Counted from the first letter of the stretch, positions 4,148 through 62,874 are shown. The stretch: 64,000 bases of DNA from Chloroflexota bacterium (GCA_005880615.1 VBID01000114.1:471-64470); one strand, 5' to 3'. Translations and numbers: made by a program. Notes: generated by a model from the letters alone, not told the origin.

Positions 4148-4288
4148 TCAGCGGTGGTCGTCGCGCTGGACGAGGTAGAGGACGACCGCCAGGTACTCCT
4201 GGGAGTCGGCCGAGGCGACCCAGCGGGTGTCTTCCGGCTGCCGGCCGAACAGGGAAAAGACCTCGGTCAGCGTCAGGTGCTCGTCCAT
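4148..4288 (-). CDS. Unannotated 46-aa protein, paralog B
   Basis: MDEHLTLTEVFSLFGRQPEDTRWVASADSQEYLAVVLYLVQRDDHR; gap-free alignment with paralog A. Confidence 0.8.
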   Translation of the reverse strand: MDEHLTLTEVFSLFGRQPEDTRWVASADSQEYLAVVLYLVQRDDHR

Positions 4289-4345
4289 AGGCGTCGCGCC
4301 CATGGGGGTGCAACGGCCGCCGCCGCGCGAAGCGCGCGAATTCCA

Positions 4346-4361
4346 GTCACAAGCCGGTAAC
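4346..4361. promoter_or_regulatory. Second GTnAC-N6-GTnAC box
   Basis: GTCAC-AAGCCG-GTAAC in the divergent intergenic region. Confidence 0.4.
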
Positions 4362-4441
4362 GGTTGCCGGTTCACAGGCCCGCTGCTTAGGCGGGCGGTG
4401 GCCCGGGTACACTTTCGAGGCAACTTACGGAGGGTAAATCG

Positions 4442-5161
4442 ATGTTCTTCTTCAGTCCCGGCTACTTGTTGTTCGTCTTCCTTCCCATCCTGGTCCTCAG
4501 CCTGGCGGCCCGGGGATGGGTCCAGTCCACCTACGCGCGCTACTCCAAGGTGCCCAACTCCACCGGGCAGACGGGGGCCCAGGTCGCCCAGCGGATCCTG
4601 ACCGGCAGCGGACTGAGCCATGTCCAGATCAACATCATCGACGGGGATCTGACCGACAACTACGATCCCCGCACCAAGACCCTCAACCTGTCCCGCGGCG
4701 TGGCCACCAGCACGTCAGTCGCGGCCGAGGCGGTGGCGGCCCACGAGATCGGTCACGCGCAGCAGGACGCGCAGGGCTACTTCGCCATGCAGTGGCGATC
4801 AGGCCTGGTGCCGGTGGCCAACCTCGGGTCTCAGGCGGCTCCGCTGATCGTGGTGGCCGGCCTGATCCTCTCCTGGCTGTCGGGTGGTGCCACCTTTGGT
4901 ATCGCGATCGCCGAGCTCGGCCTCGCCCTGTTCGCCATGGTCGTCCTCTTCAACCTGGTGACCACCCCGGTCGAGCTAAACGCCAGCCATCGCGCGCTGG
5001 GCCTGCTGGCCGAGAACGGGGCCATCCTGCCGGAAGAGCAAGCCGGCGCGCGCCAGATGCTGCGGGCGGCCGCTTTCACCTACTGGGTGGCGCTGATCGC
5101 CTCCATCCTGACCCTGCTCTATTACGCCTCGCTGGTCTTTGGCAATCGTCGCAACAACTGA
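4442..5161 (+). CDS. yugP: YugP-family membrane zinc metallopeptidase
   Basis: LTDNYDPRTKTLNLS, AAHEIGHA (HExxH), TPVELNAS; GGAGG SD. Confidence 0.9.
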   Translation: MFFFSPGYLLFVFLPILVLSLAARGWVQSTYARYSKVPNSTGQTGAQVAQRILTGSGLSHVQINIIDGDLTDNYDPRTKTLNLSRGVATSTSVAAEAVAAHEIGHAQQDAQGYFAMQWRSGLVPVANLGSQAAPLIVVAGLILSWLSGGATFGIAIAELGLALFAMVVLFNLVTTPVELNASHRALGLLAENGAILPEEQAGARQMLRAAAFTYWVALIASILTLLYYASLVFGNRRNN

Positions 5162-53561: not shown

Positions 53562-54044
53562 CTACAGCTGTGGTGTCGGTGGCAGGGATACGGTCGGGGT
53601 GGGCAGCGGGAGTGGAGTCGGGGTGGGCAGCGGGAGTGGGGTCGGCGTGGGTAGGGGTAGCGGGGTCGGCGGGGGGGGCACTGATATGCCTGTCGGCGTC
53701 GGGAGCGGGTTAGCCGTCGGGGACGGTCCCGGGACGCTGGGGTTGTTCGGGCTCGCCGACGCAGTAGGCGTCGGGACGACCGGGGTGCCGCTCGTCGCGC
53801 TGGGCCCCGGGCTGGCCGTCGCCGGAGCGGCGTCGTGCCGGGCATCGGCGATGACCCGCGCCGACAGCGGCGCCAGCTGGCCGCTGCCGTGGCCGCTGTA
53901 GCCGGGCGCGGTCAGCACGTGGACGTTGACTGGCAGCGCCAGGGTCGTCGGAGCGGCCGATCCGCGCAGAGCCGCCAGCCAGAATGCCGGGCCCAGGCAC
54001 AGGGCGGCAGCCAGCGGAACGGCCCAGTGGGTGGCCCGCCTCAT
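53562..54044 (-). CDS. Membrane-anchored Pro/Thr-stalk protein A (partner of the HD-GYP gene)
   Basis: N-terminal TM ending LAALR, motif PLSARVIADARHD, PT-rich tail; ATGA overlap with the HD-GYP stop. Confidence 0.8.
   Translation of the reverse strand: MRRATHWAVPLAAALCLGPAFWLAALRGSAAPTTLALPVNVHVLTAPGYSGHGSGQLAPLSARVIADARHDAAPATASPGPSATSGTPVVPTPTASASPNNPSVPGPSPTANPLPTPTGISVPPPPTPLPLPTPTPLPLPTPTPLPLPTPTVSLPPTPQL
53593..53664 (-). repeat. 3 x 24-bp tandem repeat encoding PLPLPTPT-type units
   Basis: GTCGGGGTGGGCAGCGGGAGTGG(A/G) twice plus one degenerate copy. Confidence 0.85.
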
Positions 54045-55720
54045 GATGCCTTGATCTCCTCGACGATGGCGGCGATCGCCTGGCGACGGGCCGCGAATGC
54101 GGTCACGACGTCGGGGTCATAGCGCACCCCGGACTCGACGATGATCGCCCGGGTGGCGGCTTCCGGGCTCAGCGCCCGCCGGTACGGTCGCTCCGACGTC
54201 AGGGCATCAAAGACGTCGGCCACGGTCAGGATGCGGACCAGCAGCGGGATGCCCGAGCCGGCGATGCCGTCCGGATAGCCCGCGCCATCCCAGCGCTCGT
54301 GATGATGCAGCACACCGGGCAGGCTGGGCTGGAGGAAGCGCAGGCCTTTCAGCATCTCGTACCCGATGCGGGGGTGCTCCTGCATGGTGCCCGCCTCTTC
54401 GTCATTGAGCTGGGTCGGCTTGTGCAGCACGCGGTCGGCAATGCCGATCTTGCCGATGTCGTGCAGCAGGGCCGACCGCCGCAGCGCCAGGCGTGCCCCG
54501 GGATCCAGTCCCAGGGCCGCCGCGATCTCCGCGCTGATAGCAGCCACGCGTTCGGAATGGCCGAAGGTATACGGATCCCGCGCGTCGATGGCCCGGGCCA
54601 GGGCTTCCATGCTGCTGAAGTAGATCTCCTCCAGCTGTCCCGTCTTGTCGGCCAGGCTGGCGGCCATATGGTTGAACGACTGGGCCAGCGAGCCGATCTC
54701 GTCCCGGGAGCGCACCCGGGCTCGGTAGGCGAGGTCCCCGGCGGCAATCACTCGGGTGGCCGTGGCCAGCTCCTCCACCGGCCTGGTGATCCACCAGGCC
54801 ACCAGCGCGCCCGCCAGCAGCGTGAGCAGCCCAGCCGCGGCGAAGATGGCCGTCAGCAGCACGCGCAGCTGCGCCAGCAGGGCGGTCAGGCCGTCGGCAT
54901 TCAGGGACGTTCCCAGATAGCCCAGCTGGTGCCCGCGCAGCGTCCAGTCACTGAAGAGGGTGCCGACCTGGTGACCCTCACGGACCTCCATGACCCGGAT
55001 CGCCTGGCCGGCGGTGACCTGCTGGCGGACGGCTTGATTGAGGGAGCGGGCGGCCGGCAGGGTTGAGCTCAAGAGGCTGCCGTGGCCGTCGTAGAACGAA
55101 GACCCGGGGATGCTATGGGCGACGTCAGCCACGGACTCCCCGATTAGGATGGCGCCCACCACCTGGACCCGGCTGTTCCAGACCGGTCCGATCCAGTAGA
55201 GCTCGGGCTGGGGCAGCCCGGCGTCCAGAAAGACGTTGCGCTCGCCCATCCCATCGGTTCGTCCCGCCAGTGCATCCTGGACGGGGGGAAGCGGAGACAG
55301 CTGGGAGTCGATGTTTGGCAGGGTGACGGGCCCCCCGGGGCTGCCCAGGACCCCGAGCAGCTGGTGTCCGCCCCGGTCCAGGACGCGAAGCTCAAGATTG
55401 GCCGGTGTCGTGTTGCCGGCCAGCGGCGTGAGCAGCCGGGCCAGGGTCCTGCCATCGCCGCCGGCCACCGCTTCCGGAACGCCCAGGGTGTCGGTGGCCG
55501 CCCGCAGCTGGGCCAGCCGGTCGGTTTCGAGGACCTCCAGCCGATCGTTGGCCAGCAGGCTGGCGCGCAGCAGGCCGGCATCGAACTCGGCGGCGGCGGC
55601 GAGCGACAGCCGGGCCGTCGCTAGCCAAGTTCCCAGGACGCCCACCAGTAGCAGGACCACGAAGAAGGGGAGGATGATCTTGGCGCGGATCGGTAGGTAC
55701 ACGGGGTCCGACACGATCAT
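54041..55720 (-). CDS. Sensor HD-GYP c-di-GMP phosphodiesterase (TM, Cache-like, TM, HAMP, HD-GYP)
   Basis: DPYTFGHSERV, LLHDIGK, HHERWDGAGYP, ADVFDAL, RPY; HAMP ITRPVEEL..DEIG; ATG at 55720 chosen. Confidence 0.92.
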   Translation of the reverse strand: MIVSDPVYLPIRAKIILPFFVVLLLVGVLGTWLATARLSLAAAAEFDAGLLRASLLANDRLEVLETDRLAQLRAATDTLGVPEAVAGGDGRTLARLLTPLAGNTTPANLELRVLDRGGHQLLGVLGSPGGPVTLPNIDSQLSPLPPVQDALAGRTDGMGERNVFLDAGLPQPELYWIGPVWNSRVQVVGAILIGESVADVAHSIPGSSFYDGHGSLLSSTLPAARSLNQAVRQQVTAGQAIRVMEVREGHQVGTLFSDWTLRGHQLGYLGTSLNADGLTALLAQLRVLLTAIFAAAGLLTLLAGALVAWWITRPVEELATATRVIAAGDLAYRARVRSRDEIGSLAQSFNHMAASLADKTGQLEEIYFSSMEALARAIDARDPYTFGHSERVAAISAEIAAALGLDPGARLALRRSALLHDIGKIGIADRVLHKPTQLNDEEAGTMQEHPRIGYEMLKGLRFLQPSLPGVLHHHERWDGAGYPDGIAGSGIPLLVRILTVADVFDALTSERPYRRALSPEAATRAIIVESGVRYDPDVVTAFAARRQAIAAIVEEIKAS

Positions 55721-55825
55721 CTCGATGACGGGTTGCGCCGCGAGTTTCGTCCTGCCCAAATCGGCCGGCTGAATGGCGCAGCCAGGCCGGCCGAATGGCC
55801 TACTGCCCGTATAATCGTCAGCCAC

Positions 55826-57280
55826 ATGCCGGCCGGCAGTGACGACGGGTTCGTCAAGGACATCCGCAAACAGTCTCAGGACTTCCCGGGCTGGTACAAC
55901 GACGTGGTCCGCAAGGCCGAGCTGGCGGACAACTCACCCGTCGCCGGGTCCATGGTCATCCGCCCGTATGGGTATTCGCTCTGGGAAAACATCCGTGACC
56001 CGCTGGACGCGCTGATCAAGCAAACCGGCCACGAGAACTGGTACTTTCCCGCCCTGATCCCGCTGAGCTTCCTGCAGAAAGAGAAGGAGCATGTGGCGGG
56101 CTTTGCGCCCGAGTTTCAGCTGGTGACCCATGGCGGTGGCAAGGAACTCGAGGAACCGCTCGTCCTGCGGCCGACCTCCGAGACCATGATCGCCAGCGTC
56201 CTGCGAAATTACATCCAGTCGTACCGCGACCTGCCAGTGCTCACCAACCAGTGGAACAACGTCTTCCGCTGGGAGTTGCGCACCCGGTTCTTCCTGCGCA
56301 CTCGCGAGTTTCTATGGCAGGAGGGGCATACCTTCCACGAGACGGCCGCGGAGGCCGAGGAAGAGGTTGACCGGATGCTGGAGTGCTACCGCCAGATCTG
56401 TGAGGACTGGTGCGCCATGCCGGTCTTCCTGGGCCGGAAGTCCGAAACCGAAAAGTTCGCCGGGGCCCAGTACTCCACCGCGGTGGAGGCCATGATGAAG
56501 GATGGCAAGGCGCTCCAGGCCGGCACCTCGCACTACTTCGGGCAGAATTTCACGCGGGCGTACGACCTGACCTTCACTGACCGGTCCAACCAGCGGGAGC
56601 ATCCCCACTCCACCAGCTGGGGCATGTCCACCCGGATGGTGGGGGCCGTGGTGATGGCCCATGGCGACGATTTCGGGCTGCAGCTCCCGCCGCGCATCGC
56701 GCCGATCCAGGTGGTGGTCGTCCCGATTTTTCGGACTGAGGACGAAAAGTCTCAGATCCAGGAAGCACTGGGTCCGGCGCTGCATCCCGCCGCCGGCGTC
56801 CGCGTCAAGGTCGACTGGCGGGATGAGCGGCCCGGCTTCAAGTTCAACGAATGGGAGCTCAAGGGCGTCCCCCTGCGCATCGAGGTGGGGCCTCGCGACC
56901 TGGCCAAGGGGGAGGTCCTCCTGGTCCGCCGCCTCGACCGGAGCAAGAAGGAGTCCGTGCCGCTGCTCATGCTAAAGAGCCGGCTGCCGGAGGCGCTGAG
57001 CGAGATCCAGCAAGCCATGTATGCGCGAGCGCTGCAGTTCCGGACCGAGCACACCGTGCGCCTCGACTCGCTGGCCGCCATGGTCGATTTCTTCGAGCAT
57101 CGGATCGGGTTCGTGATCACGCCCTGGTGCGGCCGCGCCGAGGACGAGAAGCTGGTGCAGGAACGGACCGGCGGCGCCACCACGCGCGTCATCCCCAAGA
57201 ACGCGGCCAAGCCGGCCGGAGCCTGCGCCGTCTGTGGCACGCCCGCCGTCAGCGACGTCATCTGGGCGAAGGCCTATTAG
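55826..57280 (+). CDS. proS: Proline-tRNA ligase (archaeal/eukaryote-like type)
   Basis: LRPTSET, FLRTREFLWQEGHT, ALQAGTSH, C-terminal WAKAY. Confidence 0.96.
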   Translation: MPAGSDDGFVKDIRKQSQDFPGWYNDVVRKAELADNSPVAGSMVIRPYGYSLWENIRDPLDALIKQTGHENWYFPALIPLSFLQKEKEHVAGFAPEFQLVTHGGGKELEEPLVLRPTSETMIASVLRNYIQSYRDLPVLTNQWNNVFRWELRTRFFLRTREFLWQEGHTFHETAAEAEEEVDRMLECYRQICEDWCAMPVFLGRKSETEKFAGAQYSTAVEAMMKDGKALQAGTSHYFGQNFTRAYDLTFTDRSNQREHPHSTSWGMSTRMVGAVVMAHGDDFGLQLPPRIAPIQVVVVPIFRTEDEKSQIQEALGPALHPAAGVRVKVDWRDERPGFKFNEWELKGVPLRIEVGPRDLAKGEVLLVRRLDRSKKESVPLLMLKSRLPEALSEIQQAMYARALQFRTEHTVRLDSLAAMVDFFEHRIGFVITPWCGRAEDEKLVQERTGGATTRVIPKNAAKPAGACAVCGTPAVSDVIWAKAY

Positions 57281-57362
57281 CCGGCGTCGGCCTAGCGCGT
57301 GCGGCAGCCGGCCCGGCGCGTCTCCATAATTTGGGTACAAACACTCAAGAGGACCGATACCC

Positions 57363-59510
57363 ATGCAATTCGCCGATCTGGTTGCCAAGGTGGGATACCT
57401 GCCGCCGCAGGATCTGGAGGTCCTCTCGCGTGCCTATGAGACGGCCGCCAGCGCCCACCACGACCAGAACCGGCTCTCGGGCGAAAAGTTCATCGAACAC
57501 CCCCTAGCGGTGGCCGCCATCCTGGCCGATCTGCAGATGGACCGCGACACGCTGGCCGCGGCCATCCTGCACGACACCGTGGAGGACACCCACTTGACGG
57601 TGCAGGACCTGGAGCAGAGCTTCGGCCCCACCGTGGGCAAGCTGGTGGCGGGCGTCACCAAGCTGGAGCGGATCTCGTTCCACAGCCAGGAGCAAGCGCA
57701 GGCCGAGAACGTCCGCAAGATGCTGGTGGCCATGGCCGAAGACATCCGGGTGGTGCTGACCAAGCTGGCCGACCGGCTTCACAACATGCGCACCGTGAAC
57801 TTCCTGCCCCAGGAGCGCCGCAAGGCCATGGCGCAGGAGACGCTCGACATCTACGCCCCGCTGGCCCACCGGCTGGGCATGTGGGGCATCAAGTGGGAGC
57901 TGGAAGACCTCTCCTTCGCCGAGCTCCACCCCGACAACTACCAGGACATCGTCAAGAAGATCGCGCGCAAGCGAAAGGAACGCGAGGCCTACGTCAACGA
58001 CGTCACCGAGATCCTGCAGCGCGAGCTGACCGCGGTCGGGATCAAGGCCGAGACCACCGGCCGGCCGAAGCACGTCTACAGCATCGCCAACAAGCTGGCC
58101 CTGGGCAAAGACTTCGACGAGATCTACGACCTCTCCGCCATCCGGGTGCTAACAGATTCGATCAAAGATTGCTACGGCGCCCTGGGGGTCATCCACTCGC
58201 TCTGGAAGCCGATCCCCGGTCGGTTCAAGGACTACATCGCCATGCCCAAGTCCAACGGGTACCAGTCACTGCACACGACCGTGGTCAGCCACACCGGAGA
58301 GCCGATGGAGATCCAGATCCGGACCCAGGAGATGCACCGGACCGCCGAGTGGGGCGTGGCTGCCCACTGGACATACAAGGAAGGGGCCGGGAAGGACGAG
58401 CGCAAGCTGGACCAGCGGTTCGCCTGGCTGCGCCAGCTGATGGACTGGCAGAAGGAGGTCCTGGACGCCGAGAAGTTCGTGGACGCGGTCAAGGTCGATG
58501 TCTTCCAGGACGAAGTGTTCGTCTTTACGCCGAAGGGCGACGTCCTGGCCCTGCCATCGGGCGCCACCACCGTCGATTTTGCCTACCGCATTCACACCGA
58601 GGTGGGCCACCACTGCATCGGCGCCAAGGTCAACAACCGCATGGTTCCGCTGGACCACGCCCTGGAAAACGGCGACATCGTGGAGATCGTCACCTCACGC
58701 GGCCCCCACGGCCCGAGCCGCGATTGGCTGAGCTTTGTCAAGACCGCCGGCGCGGCGCAAAAAATCCGGGCGTGGTTCAAGAAGGAGCGGCGCGAAGAGA
58801 ACATCACCAAAGGCAAGGAGTTGCTGGACAAGGAGTTCCGCCGGATGCAGCAGCGACCGATTGCCTCCTTGAGCGAAGCGCAACTGCTAGAGCTGGCGAA
58901 GGAATTCCGATTCAACGACCTGACCGACTTCTACGCGGCCATCGGCTACGGTGACGTCAGCCCATACGCCGTGCTGGTGAAGGCGGCCGCCGGCGACCAG
59001 CCGGACAGCAGCGGGGAGTTCCCGCTCATCCCCTTCGTCCCCCAGTTCAAGCCGACCGGGGAGGTGCGGGTCAAGGGCGAGAGCGGTGTCCTCTCCCAGA
59101 TCGCACGCTGCTGCAAGCCGGTTCCCGGGGACGCCATCGCCGGCTACATCACCCGCGGCAAGGGCATCAGTGTGCACCGGGCATCCTGTCCGAACATTGT
59201 CAATGCCCAAAGCCGGGAACGGCTGGTGGACGTGGAGTGGGATACCGGAGGCCGGCAGCTCTACCAGGTTGGCATCAAGATCGAGGCCTGGGACCGCACC
59301 GGCTTGCTACGCGACATCGCCACGGTCATCGCCGAAAACAAGATCAACCTCACCGGAGCCGAGGTCCAGGTCTACGACGATAAGACGGCGGTGATCTCGA
59401 CCACCGTGGAGATCAATAGCCTCACGCAACTGAGCCGGCTGATGGAGCGGCTGGAGACGGTCAAGGACGTGCACACCGTTGCCCGGGAAGGAAACCTGGC
59501 TGCCAGTTAG
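57363..59510 (+). CDS. rel: Bifunctional (p)ppGpp synthetase/hydrolase (long RSH)
   Basis: LHDTVEDT, KLADRLHNMRT, YQSLHT, EIQIRT, TGS (VFTPKG), CC-containing segment (CCKPVPGD), ACT. Confidence 0.97.
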   Translation: MQFADLVAKVGYLPPQDLEVLSRAYETAASAHHDQNRLSGEKFIEHPLAVAAILADLQMDRDTLAAAILHDTVEDTHLTVQDLEQSFGPTVGKLVAGVTKLERISFHSQEQAQAENVRKMLVAMAEDIRVVLTKLADRLHNMRTVNFLPQERRKAMAQETLDIYAPLAHRLGMWGIKWELEDLSFAELHPDNYQDIVKKIARKRKEREAYVNDVTEILQRELTAVGIKAETTGRPKHVYSIANKLALGKDFDEIYDLSAIRVLTDSIKDCYGALGVIHSLWKPIPGRFKDYIAMPKSNGYQSLHTTVVSHTGEPMEIQIRTQEMHRTAEWGVAAHWTYKEGAGKDERKLDQRFAWLRQLMDWQKEVLDAEKFVDAVKVDVFQDEVFVFTPKGDVLALPSGATTVDFAYRIHTEVGHHCIGAKVNNRMVPLDHALENGDIVEIVTSRGPHGPSRDWLSFVKTAGAAQKIRAWFKKERREENITKGKELLDKEFRRMQQRPIASLSEAQLLELAKEFRFNDLTDFYAAIGYGDVSPYAVLVKAAAGDQPDSSGEFPLIPFVPQFKPTGEVRVKGESGVLSQIARCCKPVPGDAIAGYITRGKGISVHRASCPNIVNAQSRERLVDVEWDTGGRQLYQVGIKIEAWDRTGLLRDIATVIAENKINLTGAEVQVYDDKTAVISTTVEINSLTQLSRLMERLETVKDVHTVAREGNLAAS

Positions 59511-59596
59511 CCGGTGAAGACTGGCATGGACGTGGTGACTTTAGGCATTCCGTAACGGCGTGCGCCTAGCATCGGCGTGGCCAAAGGGGCCGACCC

Positions 59597-60181
59597 ATGG
59601 GTGCCACCTCCAATCCTCGCCGCGCGCTGGCCGGATACCTGACGGTAGCGGCCGGCATCGCCCTGCTGTTCGGGGTGGTGGCGCTGGCCGCTCTCCGTCC
59701 CGCGGACGGGCTGGCCTGGGTCCGGCTGCCCCAGCTGGGCGCCGACTTCGGACTCGATCCCGGCCTGAAGACTCGACCGCTGCGCTCGACCATCGTTGCC
59801 GAGGCGTTACAGGATCGCCTCGACAGCTCAACAGGCCCCGAGGCGAGTCTCGTTATTCCTCCGATCCTGGCCATGACCCCGCCCAACGCCGTCCCCAGCG
59901 CGGCTGGTCCGGGAAGACCGGTGGCTGTCGTGAAGCCAGTACCCAACCCGAGCGCCGCGCCGAGCCCCACGCCAATCCCCACGGCCAGCCCCACGCCAAT
60001 CCCCACGGCCAGCCCCACGCCAATCCCCACGGCCAGCCCCACGGCCAGCCCCACGGCCAGCCCCACGGCCAGCCCCACGGCCAGCCCCACGCCTGCCCCA
60101 ACGCCGGCTCCAACTCCCTCGCCGACTCCATGCAACCGGGGTGGCGGCGCCGGCGCCGGCACTGGAAACTGCAAACGGTGA
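59597..60181 (+). CDS. Membrane-anchored Pro/Thr-stalk protein B (partner of the diguanylate cyclase gene)
   Basis: N-terminal TM ending LAALR, motif PLRSTIVAEALQD, PT-rich tail, C-terminal Cys pair; GTGA overlap with the cyclase. Confidence 0.8.
   Translation: MGATSNPRRALAGYLTVAAGIALLFGVVALAALRPADGLAWVRLPQLGADFGLDPGLKTRPLRSTIVAEALQDRLDSSTGPEASLVIPPILAMTPPNAVPSAAGPGRPVAVVKPVPNPSAAPSPTPIPTASPTPIPTASPTPIPTASPTASPTASPTASPTASPTPAPTPAPTPSPTPCNRGGGAGAGTGNCKR
59963..60082 (+). repeat. Perfect tandem repeat: 3 x 24 bp plus 4 x 12 bp
   Basis: AGCCCCACGCCAATCCCCACGGCC x3 (SPTPIPTA) then AGCCCCACGGCC x4 (SPTA). Confidence 0.95.
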
Positions 60182-62874
60182 GGGCGGTGAGGCTGACCCA
60201 GCTGATCAGCCGGCTGCCCGGCTTGCCCTCCCTTCGTATCCGGACCCAGATCATTGCCCCCTTCCTACTATTGATGGTGATCCTGGGAATCGTGGGGACC
60301 TATCTCACCACCAGCCTGGTGGCCAGTTCGCTGGAGCAACGGATCGCCGGCCAGCTGGTCCAAGCGCAGGACGCGGCCTTGGATGGCGCGGCCAACCTTC
60401 AGGCCCGCCAGGTGGCCGCTATCCGGCTGGTCGCCAACACGGAGGGGGTCGACGCGGCGATCCTCCGGGCTGATCAACCCGCCCTGAAACAGCTGGTCGT
60501 GCCAATCGAGGTCAACAACCGGTTGGGAAGCGTGAAGATCTTCGATGTCCAGGGCCGCACGCTGCTCGAGATCGAGCAACCGAACCCGGCCAACCCGGGT
60601 GGCCTCACCTTCCAGAGCGGCACCGACCTGTCCGCAGAGCCGCTGATCGCCCAGGTGCTGCATGGGAACTACGACGCCCTGGGCGACAAGTGGGTGGGGT
60701 ACGCGGGCAGCCCGCCCTCGACCCTGGCGGCCGCCGGACCGGTCCTCAGCCACGACCAGGTGGTGGGTGGCATCTTGCTGGAGACCCCCCTGTCCTGGGC
60801 GCTGGCCGAGATGCGGAGCAAAGCCATGGCCGACGTGGTGCTGCTCGATCAAAACGGGCAGCTGCTCGGGTCCACCCTCCCCGGCGTGGGCAAAGACGTG
60901 CTGGACGAGCGCACCCGCTCCTACCTGGGCCTGGCGTCGCCCGGCCGGGCCGCTCGCCGCACCCTCGATGTGGGCCAGCACCCCTATGAGTTCCAGTTTT
61001 CGTTGTTCTACCTGCGGCAGCGCCCGGTGGGCTTCCTGGCTGTCGCCCTCTCACGCCAGACCGTGGTGGACGCGGGCGTCCGCTCAGCCCTGCAGATGAC
61101 CATCCTCTTCACCGCCGTGGTGCTGCTCCTGCTCATCATCGGGTACATCCTGGCACTTCGGATCACGCGCCCCATCGACGACCTGGTGGCCGGCACCGCG
61201 GCCGTGGCCCGCGGCGAGCTCGGCCGCCGTCTGCAGGTCCGACGGCGGGATGAACTGGGACATCTGGCCGACTCCTTCAATGCCATGACCGAGGACCTGC
61301 AGGAGCGGACACGCGACCTGCACGAGCAGATGGGCCGCCTGGCTGCCCTACATCAGACCCGCGTGGGATTGGGACGCCGGGGGGAACCCGCGGAGATGGC
61401 CGAGGCCATTCTGGGGGTTAGCCTCAAGGCCCTGGGGATCGAAACCGCACTCCTCCTGTCCCGCAACCGGGAGACTCAGCGGGTTGAGCCCCGTGCGTTG
61501 GTGGGTTTTGGGGCAGACTCGGCCGACCTGCTGCACCGCTTCGAGCAGGTCGACCTGGCGGAAGGGTTCGATCTGGAACGTGAGACCGACATCGAGACCG
61601 TCGAGGACCCCTCACTGGACGGCCGACCCGCCCTGCGGCTCTTCGGTCAGGCGGCCGGAGTCGACCGCGCCCTGGTGGTGCCCCTCTCCGGCGGCGCCGA
61701 GACGGCCGGCTACCTGCTGCTGGGGGCGCCGGCCGGGTACGTGCCGACCCAGCAGGACGTTGAGGTGCTGCAAACCATCGCCACCGAGGTGGCCCTCATG
61801 GTCGAGAACATCGACCTGCAGCACAAGACCGAGGTGCAGGCCCGCCGGCTCGACCAGGCGATCATCGCCCTGGAGAAGATCTCCCAGGCGCTCACCACGG
61901 TGACGGTTGGCGCGGACAACCTGCTGCGGGCCGTGGCCCGGGCCACCATGGAGATCCTCGAGGTGCCCTACGCCTCCATCCACCTGACCAAACCCGAGTG
62001 GCGCGACCGGTTCGCCGACGTGGCCGTCGGGCCGGTCTCGCGCAGCGAAATGCATGCGGTGCGGGTCAGCGCGGGCGCCCTGTCGCGCCGGATGGCCGGT
62101 TCGGACTCGCTGGTCGAGCTCGACCTGGCTAGTGAGCCTCGTCTGCCGCAGCGTCTGCTGGAAAAGGTGGGACTGCGGCGGGGGGTGGGGGTCTCGATGA
62201 CTCTGGGCGGGGCGGTCGTCGGGACGCTGGCCATTCATATGCGGGAGCCGCGTACCCTGGAGCAGAGCGAGCTGCGGGTGCTCCAGACTCTCGCCAACCA
62301 GGCGGTCATTGCCATCGAGAACGCCTTCTTGTTCGAAGAGACCCGTCACCTGGCCATGACGGACGGGCTGACCGGGGTGGCCAACCATCGTGGCTTTGAG
62401 GCCCGGCTGGAGCGCGAGCTGCAGCGGGCTCGCCGGTCGCGCGAACGGCTGGCCCTGGTGCTCTGCGACCTCGACCATTTCAAGGACATCAACGACACCA
62501 TCGGTCACCTGGCGGGCGACGCGGTACTACGCTACCTCGCCGAACAGGTCCTCACTCCCGAGGTCCGGCCCAAGGACCTGGTCGCCCGCTATGGGGGGGA
62601 TGAGTTCGTGCTGGTTCTCCCAGGGGCAGACGCCCGGGTCGCGGCCGGCGTCGCCGAGCGAATCCGGCAGGCGGCTATGCGGCCGCTGGTCTTCGAGGGC
62701 CGGGTCATCTCGAACCTCTCCATGAGCCTCGGGATCGCCAGCTTTCCGAAAGACGGCGACACGCGCGAAGCCTTGGTGCAGGCGGCCGACCGGGCGCTGT
62801 ACCTGGCCAAGCGCGAGGGGCGCAACCGCATTGCCCGTGCCGATGAGCCCGCCTCGCACGAACGCGCGAGCTAA
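60178..62874 (+). CDS. Sensor diguanylate cyclase (TM, Cache-like, TM, HAMP, GAF, GAF, GGDEF)
   Basis: TDGLTGVAN, DLDHFKDINDTIGH, RPKD I-site, RYGGDEF, ADRALYLAK; GTG at 60178. Confidence 0.93.
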   Translation: MRAVRLTQLISRLPGLPSLRIRTQIIAPFLLLMVILGIVGTYLTTSLVASSLEQRIAGQLVQAQDAALDGAANLQARQVAAIRLVANTEGVDAAILRADQPALKQLVVPIEVNNRLGSVKIFDVQGRTLLEIEQPNPANPGGLTFQSGTDLSAEPLIAQVLHGNYDALGDKWVGYAGSPPSTLAAAGPVLSHDQVVGGILLETPLSWALAEMRSKAMADVVLLDQNGQLLGSTLPGVGKDVLDERTRSYLGLASPGRAARRTLDVGQHPYEFQFSLFYLRQRPVGFLAVALSRQTVVDAGVRSALQMTILFTAVVLLLLIIGYILALRITRPIDDLVAGTAAVARGELGRRLQVRRRDELGHLADSFNAMTEDLQERTRDLHEQMGRLAALHQTRVGLGRRGEPAEMAEAILGVSLKALGIETALLLSRNRETQRVEPRALVGFGADSADLLHRFEQVDLAEGFDLERETDIETVEDPSLDGRPALRLFGQAAGVDRALVVPLSGGAETAGYLLLGAPAGYVPTQQDVEVLQTIATEVALMVENIDLQHKTEVQARRLDQAIIALEKISQALTTVTVGADNLLRAVARATMEILEVPYASIHLTKPEWRDRFADVAVGPVSRSEMHAVRVSAGALSRRMAGSDSLVELDLASEPRLPQRLLEKVGLRRGVGVSMTLGGAVVGTLAIHMREPRTLEQSELRVLQTLANQAVIAIENAFLFEETRHLAMTDGLTGVANHRGFEARLERELQRARRSRERLALVLCDLDHFKDINDTIGHLAGDAVLRYLAEQVLTPEVRPKDLVARYGGDEFVLVLPGADARVAAGVAERIRQAAMRPLVFEGRVISNLSMSLGIASFPKDGDTREALVQAADRALYLAKREGRNRIARADEPASHERAS

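Follow-up and report, generated by a model that had tools for sequence, protein, structure and literature searches.

Small extracytoplasmic or membrane partners encoded beside a bacterial sensor are already known. Two candidate partners, here named A and B, are encoded in a 64-kb stretch of DNA (65-73% G+C; hereafter the window) from a Chloroflexota bacterium (GCA_005880615.1 VBID01000114.1:471-64470), where each gene adjoins that of a sensor enzyme of cyclic diguanosine monophosphate (c-di-GMP) turnover. To our knowledge, the inputs of most c-di-GMP enzymes are unknown, and very few partners acting from the extracytoplasmic side have been described (YfiR, NspS, and PruR). NspS, a periplasmic protein, is encoded beside the dual-domain c-di-GMP enzyme MbaA and delivers an extracytoplasmic signal to it. 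RsgI-type anti-sigma factors of Clostridia and Bacillus have a membrane helix, a juxtamembrane segment, and a Pro/Thr linker that carries a distal β-sandwich or carbohydrate-binding module into the wall. The contact between YycH/YycI and the sensor WalK runs through transmembrane (TM) helices. YycH and YycI consist of a single N-terminal membrane helix and an extracytoplasmic remainder and are encoded in the same operon as WalK, which they control (PMC7355866, PMC5013275). YfiR is a small extracytoplasmic protein encoded beside the TM-sensor-HAMP-GGDEF cyclase YfiN/TpbB and represses the cyclase through binding to its periplasmic part (PMC4887326, PMC2837407, PMC3375315). PruR, also periplasmic, is encoded beside the dual-domain enzyme DcpA and delivers an extracytoplasmic signal in the pterin-dependent DcpA pathway (PMC4488946).

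YycH/YycI of the Bacillota come closest to the mechanism proposed here for A and B, which likewise have single predicted membrane helices (residues 5-29 and 7-33, respectively) and genes that share a stop/start overlap with the sensor genes. The partner of A and B is a c-di-GMP enzyme and not a histidine kinase, and their predicted outer part is a short motif with a disordered Pro/Thr stalk instead of a folded domain. A Pfam scan detected no YycH or YycI domain in either protein. Like YfiR of the YfiBNR system, A and B are small, predicted to be extracytoplasmic, and encoded beside a sensor c-di-GMP enzyme; among NCBIfam models the GGDEF domain of the window scores best against DgcN/YfiN, below the cut-off of that model. 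YfiR is soluble, folded, periplasmic, and sequestered by an outer-membrane lipoprotein, whereas A and B are membrane-anchored and mostly disordered, and no such outer-membrane partner is evident in their lineage. No YfiR/DUF4154-type match to A or B was found in Pfam or in NCBIfam searched to E = 1. NspS and PruR are ligand-binding globular proteins, whereas the A and B of the window have no recognizable ligand-binding domain. The long relatives of A and B resemble RsgI in layout. The output of RsgI is carried by its cytoplasmic anti-sigma domain, whereas A and B have only 5-10 cytoplasmic residues and therefore any output must pass through a partner. The new elements are the protein family, its Pro/Thr-stalk layout, the pairing with HD-GYP and GGDEF enzymes, and the host lineage.

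The conserved N-terminal unit and the adjoining sensor genes

An earlier note on the window had singled out two open reading frames (ORFs) with an N-terminal membrane helix ending in LAALR, a common motif, and a Pro/Thr-rich tail. Both ORFs and both pairs of strings are present where it placed them, with LAALR at residues 23-27 of A and 30-34 of B. No ORF of the window other than A and B is rich in Pro/Thr, and six-frame translation of the whole stretch yields no third occurrence of the strict motif pattern. Their features are as follows, with helices predicted by AlphaFold2 (AF2) and confidence given as the predicted local distance difference test (pLDDT).

53562-54044, minus strand: gene A, 160 residues, single-pass membrane protein with a membrane helix, a conserved juxtamembrane segment, and a Pro/Thr-rich tail
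53958-54032, minus strand: A membrane helix, residues 5-29 (AF2 helix, pLDDT ~75-80; family conservation)
53913-53933, minus strand: A residues 38-44, PVNVHVL, with N40, V41, H42, and L44 invariant across the A family
53832-53870, minus strand: A shared motif PLSARVIADARHD, residues 59-71, predicted helix
53565-53831, minus strand: A tail, residues 72-160, rich in Pro/Thr/Ser/Ala, PLPLPTPT repeats at the end, without a distal domain
59597-60181, plus strand: gene B, 194 residues, single-pass membrane protein
59615-59695, plus strand: B membrane helix, residues 7-33 (AF2 helix, pLDDT ~79), preceded by RR and with the conserved LAALRP at its end
59777-59815, plus strand: B shared motif PLRSTIVAEALQD, residues 61-73; helix 64-78 predicted with low confidence
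59873-60130, plus strand: B linker, residues 93-178, rich in Pro/Thr/Ser/Ala, SPTPIPTA/SPTA repeats, variable in length among orthologues
60131-60172, plus strand: B loop CNRGGGAGAGTGNC, residues 179-192, conserved, Gly-rich, with two Cys

The shared motif, P-L-x3-[VI][VIL]-A-[DE]-A-x2-D, lies ~30 residues past the membrane helix in both proteins. Over 13 A-type and 64 B-type relatives, its Pro and Leu are 98-100% conserved and its final Asp 92-100%; the [VI][VIL] pair is always hydrophobic, and A-[DE]-A is the majority form and not invariant. P61 and D73 are invariant in the 64 B sequences. In the A family, W22 and A25 of the membrane helix, N40-V41-H42, L44, and A58-P59-L60 are invariant, and D71 is nearly so. 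Both orthologues and remoter relatives of A and B keep the motif. The proposal of the earlier note that the motif is helical agrees with a short AF2 helix at low confidence in each protein (A residues 59-72, pLDDT ~71; B residues 64-78, pLDDT <50; shallow family alignments). The layout of membrane helix plus motif helix is the same in the A and B models, and the remainder of each protein is unstructured.

The motif helix is not the sole conserved element that it had been taken for. Sequence is also conserved in the membrane helix, as FWL[AT]A in A and LFGxVALxAL[RQ]P in B, and in the strand-like stretch that leads from it to the motif, as VNVH[GS]L in A and W[VI]xVPxL in B. LAALR persists in the B family as L[AV]AL[RQ]P; its identity between A and B is partly coincidence because the A family keeps the central Ala alone. 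Conservation of a membrane helix is unusual for a mere anchor and fits a helix-helix contact. In the reading favored below, the conserved unit of the family is the N-terminal 75-95 residues, composed of the membrane helix, the short strand-like segment, and the motif helix.

Two Arg residues precede the membrane helix of A, which suggests an N-in/C-out topology, and we infer the same topology for the family. The positive charges before the helix and the presence of exactly two Cys in 63 of 63 complete B proteins point to an extracytoplasmic location of A and B. An analogy with lipoproteins had also been drawn. It fails on the membrane-helix Cys of A, which is not conserved, and on the lack of a lipobox: the sequence of A here is AALC, with Leu at -1, and L005, P0029, P0030, and P0031 have Leu in place of the Cys. 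The N-terminal part of B has no Cys. A lipoprotein assignment was rejected for both proteins, neither of which has the pattern [LVI][ASTVI][GAS]C with a conserved Cys.

Codon use and substitution patterns characterize A and B as protein-coding. The G+C content at third codon positions (GC3) is 0.845 in A and 0.785 in B versus 0.86-0.89 in the adjacent genes, and competing frames are lower. Insertions and deletions among A and B orthologues keep the frame. Over the N-terminal part, the ratio of nonsynonymous to synonymous substitution rates (dN/dS) spans 0.27-0.59 in A and 0.06-0.39 in B, with relA at 0.02-0.04 across the same genome pairs. GC3, in-frame indels, and dN/dS <1 thus identify both ORFs as real genes that evolve fast under purifying selection.

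The adjoining sensor genes are the following.

54041-55825, minus strand: sensor phosphodiesterase gene; TM1, ~260-residue extracytoplasmic domain, TM2, HAMP, and HD-GYP (Pfam HAMP and HD_5)
60178-62874, plus strand: sensor diguanylate cyclase gene; TM1, dCache_3-like domain, TM2, HAMP, GAF, and GGDEF (Pfam and NCBIfam GGDEF)

The HD-GYP protein matches HD_5 (PF13487, E = 9.1e-40) with the signature HHERWDGAGYP intact, and the GGDEF protein matches PF00990 (E = 6.1e-45) with RYGGDEF intact and RPKD, an RxxD I-site, five residues upstream. The neighbor of A is thus annotated from its signature as a c-di-GMP phosphodiesterase and that of B as a diguanylate cyclase. The TM1-sensor-TM2-HAMP modules of the two enzymes are 31% identical over 378 residues (E = 4e-33) and are assigned as paralogues; the 64-kb window contains no further copy of this module. 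The dCache_3 model (PF14827) matches the GGDEF protein marginally (27.1 bits against a cut-off of 25.7), and the HD-GYP protein, related to it through the sensor module, has no direct match.

The A start codon overlaps the HD-GYP stop codon (ATGA), with GAGGAG 11 nucleotides upstream of the ATG. The B stop codon overlaps a GTG at 60178 (GTGA) that is in frame with the GGDEF protein and is most likely its start; the start of the HD-GYP gene may be internal to the ORF 54041-55825. Among relatives, the nearest in-frame sensor start overlaps the B stop by 4 or 8 nucleotides in 62 of 67 loci. An A-type ORF lies directly 3' of a HAMP-HD-GYP gene in the window and in L001, L003, L005, and L007, and relatives 40-59% identical to A start at or overlap the HAMP-HD-GYP stop in all four readable contigs (P0030, P0036, P0037, and P0038). 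Every A-type relative with readable context adjoins a HAMP-HD-GYP gene, and every such B-type relative a dCache_3-HAMP-GAF-GGDEF gene, in line with the link to signaling genes that had been proposed. The earlier note had named two outcomes that would speak against its idea, a motif not conserved in orthologues and a motif apart from signaling genes; neither occurs, because the motif is conserved and all readable contexts are beside c-di-GMP genes.

Putative role at the c-di-GMP sensors

The reading that we favor, which could fall either way, makes A and B distant paralogues within a single undescribed family and putative accessory subunits of the c-di-GMP sensors encoded with them. This reading is based on the conservation of the N-terminal unit, the dispensability of the distal part, the retention of co-translation, and the paralogy of the partner sensors. 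A would be co-translated with the HD-GYP phosphodiesterase and B with the GAF-GGDEF cyclase, their partners being paralogous TM-sensor-TM-HAMP proteins. The small protein would dock through its membrane helix and juxtamembrane motif on the transmembrane or membrane-proximal region of the sensor and, once docked, would set or modulate the signaling state of the c-di-GMP enzyme, to which the sensor is linked by HAMP. The Pro/Thr stalk would reach into the wall and, in proteins with a distal domain, hold that domain there or farther out. Physical binding of A and B to the sensors and a regulatory effect on them are both putative.

The best-surviving alternative makes A and B proteins of the envelope or surface, such as adhesins, matrix components, or stalks that span the wall, carried in the operon as co-regulated cargo or output and not as sensor-binding subunits. 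It is a possible account that we place on the unlikely side. c-di-GMP often controls surface and matrix functions, which is in keeping with such a role. So are the CarboxypepD_reg β-sandwiches found in relatives, which are typical of surface and carbohydrate-associated proteins, the highly variable and repeat-driven C-terminal parts, and the survival of intact A beside broken HD-GYP genes. Against it, conservation falls on the membrane helix and juxtamembrane segment and not on the exposed end. The A and B of the window have lost their distal domains, and the N-terminal unit is still under purifying selection; the sensor stop/start overlap in 62 of the 67 loci fits stoichiometric co-production better than it fits cargo.

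Several observations weigh against A and B as accessory subunits. The HD-GYP gene is decaying in close relatives, and the downstream A gene is intact throughout. Frameshifts interrupt HD-GYP near residue 257 in L001 (4226-6048) and near residue 168 in L005 (1026-2806). In L090-92, deletions remove HD-GYP residues 1-108 and 291-428 in the same form in three independent samples; the 236-residue HD-GYP ORF that remains in L090 (3734-4778) lacks TM2, HAMP, and part of the HD domain. The dN/dS of A between lineages with a broken HD-GYP gene is 0.29-0.44. Errors of assembly could account for the two frameshifts; they would not account for deletions common to several samples. The persistence of intact A beside broken HD-GYP genes argues against a strict dependence on the HD-GYP partner; A might be independent of that sensor or might also act on the paralogous GGDEF sensor. 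The sensor of a second HD-GYP enzyme, encoded in L096, lacks an A- or B-like partner. AF2 modeled A and B at an overall pLDDT of 52-59, too low for fold comparison, and the hydrophobic moment of the motif helix is low (0.17-0.34), so the helix has no obvious binding face. An amphipathic docking helix was dropped as a candidate on these moments. In soil RNA libraries (a run of uncertain RNA status), B was covered by a few contigs at 2x and A by none.

The second HAMP-HD-GYP gene of L096 (2392-4149, minus strand) is convergent and tail-to-tail with an A-type gene, and its sensor is 39% identical to that of the window. A 103-residue ORF without a membrane helix lies upstream of it (4176-4487, minus strand).

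The two small-protein genes and their sensors stand in one block, in the order ispG (plus), A (minus), HAMP-HD-GYP (minus), proS and relA (plus), B (plus), and dCache_3-HAMP-GAF-GGDEF (plus), with hisS and aspS next after the GGDEF gene in relatives. The order dxr-rseP-ispG-A-HDGYP-proS-relA-B-GGDEF-hisS-aspS is conserved. The genes proS and relA, the latter encoding the guanosine tetra- and pentaphosphate ((p)ppGpp) synthetase/hydrolase, lie between the phosphodiesterase and cyclase genes in the window (55733-59510) and in L001, L003, and L005. This clustering of two second-messenger systems may be meaningful. More tentatively, the locus may be a lineage-specific two-branch device of Chloroflexota in which paralogous single-pass co-sensors with stalks pass one kind of information, on the envelope or wall, to the cyclase and the phosphodiesterase through membrane-helix and juxtamembrane contacts, with the branches flanking relA and coupling wall status to both c-di-GMP and (p)ppGpp.

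Probable relationship of the A and B families

Profile comparison makes common ancestry of the A and B N-terminal unit likely. Alignment of the two family profiles with hhalign gave 72 co-linear columns (score 29.1, P = 8.9e-5, probability 60%) that cover the membrane helix, LAxxVNVHGL versus LAWVxVPxL, and the motif; the probability ranged over 60-83% across profile comparisons. None of 150 full column shuffles reached 29.1 (mean 11.1, maximum 21.3), nor did any of 150 shuffles with the membrane block fixed (mean 19.7, maximum 21.1). The post-membrane part alone scored 21.8 versus 9.1 ± 1.9 for shuffles, with 0 of 200 reaching the observed value. Among 9,944 six-frame ORFs from the window and all loci, the best non-self matches of the A hidden Markov model (HMM) were B ORFs (E = 0.11-0.77), and the best non-self full-length matches of the B HMM were A ORFs (E = 0.77-5).

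Other comparisons count against common ancestry. Single-pair shuffles gave p = 0.17 for the N-termini and p = 0.027 for the post-membrane segment, and HMM-versus-sequence matches between A and B (E = 0.1-12) were not significant. HMMs built from close orthologues of A and B gave no cross-match at E up to 10, and enriched profiles alone cross-matched; the A-B BLASTP match (E = 1e-5) leans on the low-complexity tails. Gene order is opposite, with A downstream of its sensor and B upstream, so the pair cannot be explained by simply duplicating a module of two genes. The distal domains also differ, being CarboxypepD_reg in A relatives and a new two-Cys domain in B relatives. The earlier assignment of A and B to one family is thus probable and not proven: it is borne out at the level of remote profile similarity and is weak in single-pair statistics.

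It is correspondingly unlikely that A and B are unrelated families in which chance or convergence produced the same motif and layout, as Ala/Leu/Pro-rich proteins of a 68% G+C genome might do. The single-pair and HMM-versus-sequence values, the hhalign probabilities, the opposite gene order, and the different distal domains speak for such an origin. Against it stand the 72-column co-linear alignment, which beats all of the 150 and 200 shuffles, even with the membrane block fixed, and the fact that the two families are mutually the best non-self matches among the ORFs searched. In both families the Pro, Leu, and Asp of the motif vary little or not at all and stand equally far from the membrane helix, and both families adjoin paralogous sensors.

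We consider it improbable that A and B are secreted Pro/Thr-rich proteins whose N-terminal hydrophobic segment is cleaved off as a signal peptide. By eye, the charges, the hydrophobic stretch, and the small residues that follow (GSA|AP in A and ASS in divergent A members) resemble a signal peptidase I site, and a Gly-Pro pair lies midway in the hydrophobic stretch of A. Signal peptides are usually shorter and poorly conserved, whereas the hydrophobic stretches of A and B span 20-25 residues and are conserved, including the invariant W22 and A25. B has no plausible AxA site, its helix ending in LRP with Pro at +1, and AF2 predicts a continuous helix of 25-27 residues. That the A and B ORFs are chance open frames in G+C-rich DNA or repeats and not genes is almost certainly wrong: several alternative ORFs overlap them on both strands, the gene caller picked the strand opposite to A in L003, and the A N-terminus is unmatched in a 5.8-billion-protein word index, but GC3 peaks in the proposed frames, indels stay in frame at dN/dS <1, 12 A-type and >64 B-type relatives have conserved N-termini, and the start codons are translationally coupled to the adjacent sensor genes.

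Stalks, distal domains, and distribution of the family

The A tail contains a 24-bp tandem repeat (53592-53669) that encodes PLPLPTPT, and the B linker contains a tandem repeat with periods of 12 and 24 (59948-60106) that encodes SPTPIPTA/SPTA. Repeat copy number varies among near-identical orthologues, with B ranging from 162 to 194 residues and A from 141 to 219. This variation indicates that stalk length shifts quickly, presumably by slippage or recombination. The tails may conceivably be O-glycosylated, as had been suggested.

Distant A relatives carry a CarboxypepD_reg β-sandwich after the Pro/Thr linker (P0037, with two copies at E = 2.6e-33, P0038, and P0040). A Pfam scan found no match to PF13620 or PF13715 (CarboxypepD_reg) in the A or B of the window. 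In the clade with 64-68% sensor identity, B runs to 253-353 residues and has the same N-terminal unit, a Pro/Thr linker, and a C-terminal domain of ~105 residues bracketed by two invariant Cys (loci L012-L087; for example L027, 4052-4963). Its consensus is FAIxxAxExV...C.Q.TVTA.G.FTTNG.GG.V.Y.W.R.D...AGD...H.V..D.F.P.HSG.DQLVF..PAYSV.AQSW.C.G. No Pfam and no PDB sequence match was obtained for this domain, either as a single sequence or as a profile, and it may be an undescribed extracytoplasmic domain. In the clade of the window, the stretch between the two Cys is shrunk to C-NRGGGAGAGTGN-C, a pattern that is invariant among close orthologues; the B loop of the window occupies the place of the globular domain of the longer relatives, with the same two bracketing Cys. 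The remainder of B had been described as low complexity, which overlooked this conserved C-terminal C-x12-C loop. The Pro/Thr tract itself is present as reported. It is ancestrally a linker to distal globular domains, the distal domain having been lost in A and collapsed to the Cys loop in B of the window.

A and B have no relative in Pfam, in NCBIfam (scanned to E = 1), or in PDB. As no Pfam or NCBIfam model matches either protein, the earlier term "new small-protein family" is fair. An exhaustive comparison of A residues 1-75 with 1.84 billion representatives yielded 12 true relatives, down to 40% identity; P0039, a spurious repeat protein, was left out. The same residues matched nothing in the word index of 5.8 billion proteins, and a word-index search with B returned 11 homologues (66-96% identity), each with the same synteny. 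Scanning metagenomes with the sensor module as the seed gave 80 soil loci, 71 of which have a B-type ORF directly upstream of the sensor-GGDEF gene (64 unique sequences). A orthologues 3' of an HD-GYP gene were found in L001, L003, L005, L007, and L090-92. The 5-kb upstream flanks of the metagenome loci end inside the HD-GYP gene, and the context established for A covers loci outside the clade with 64-68% identity; a search with the HD-GYP sensor returned mostly fragments on short contigs.

A scan of GTDB genomes with very specific patterns, which informs on the taxon and not on breadth, returned two near-identical contigs labeled Candidatus Limnocylindria, phylum Chloroflexota. As far as seen, the A/B family occurs only in uncultured Limnocylindria-like soil bacteria. 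One 6-kb contig (L006, DASQAY010000306.1) is labeled Candidatus Eisenbacteria; its B and flanks are 91-96% identical to Limnocylindria loci, and it is probably a mis-binned contig in a Candidatus Eisenbacteria metagenome-assembled genome. The JGI contig L005 opens with a peptide ending in SDVYKRQ (19-90), which we take to be the usual translation of a sequencing-adapter remnant, and its first bases are probably artefactual. P0011 (146 residues) has B residues 1-57 fused to an out-of-frame GGDEF N-terminus and matches window positions ~59597-59770 joined to ~60215 onward. About 450 bp, the remaining part of B, is apparently deleted between two CCCGGC(C/T)TG stretches; P0011 may stem either from a genuine deletion or from faulty assembly.

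The class Limnocylindria of the Chloroflexota is abundant in soils and almost unstudied. Should A and B not bind the sensors, they would still constitute a new annotatable family of Pro/Thr-stalk envelope proteins. If they do bind, they would be the first partners of this kind to be tethered to the membrane and the first to serve an HD-GYP enzyme. The two-branch device, if true, would represent a new class of tethered partner for c-di-GMP enzymes, and with binding the paired cyclase and phosphodiesterase, with their paralogous sensors and partners, would be a natural system in which to ask how one signal comes to drive opposite outputs.

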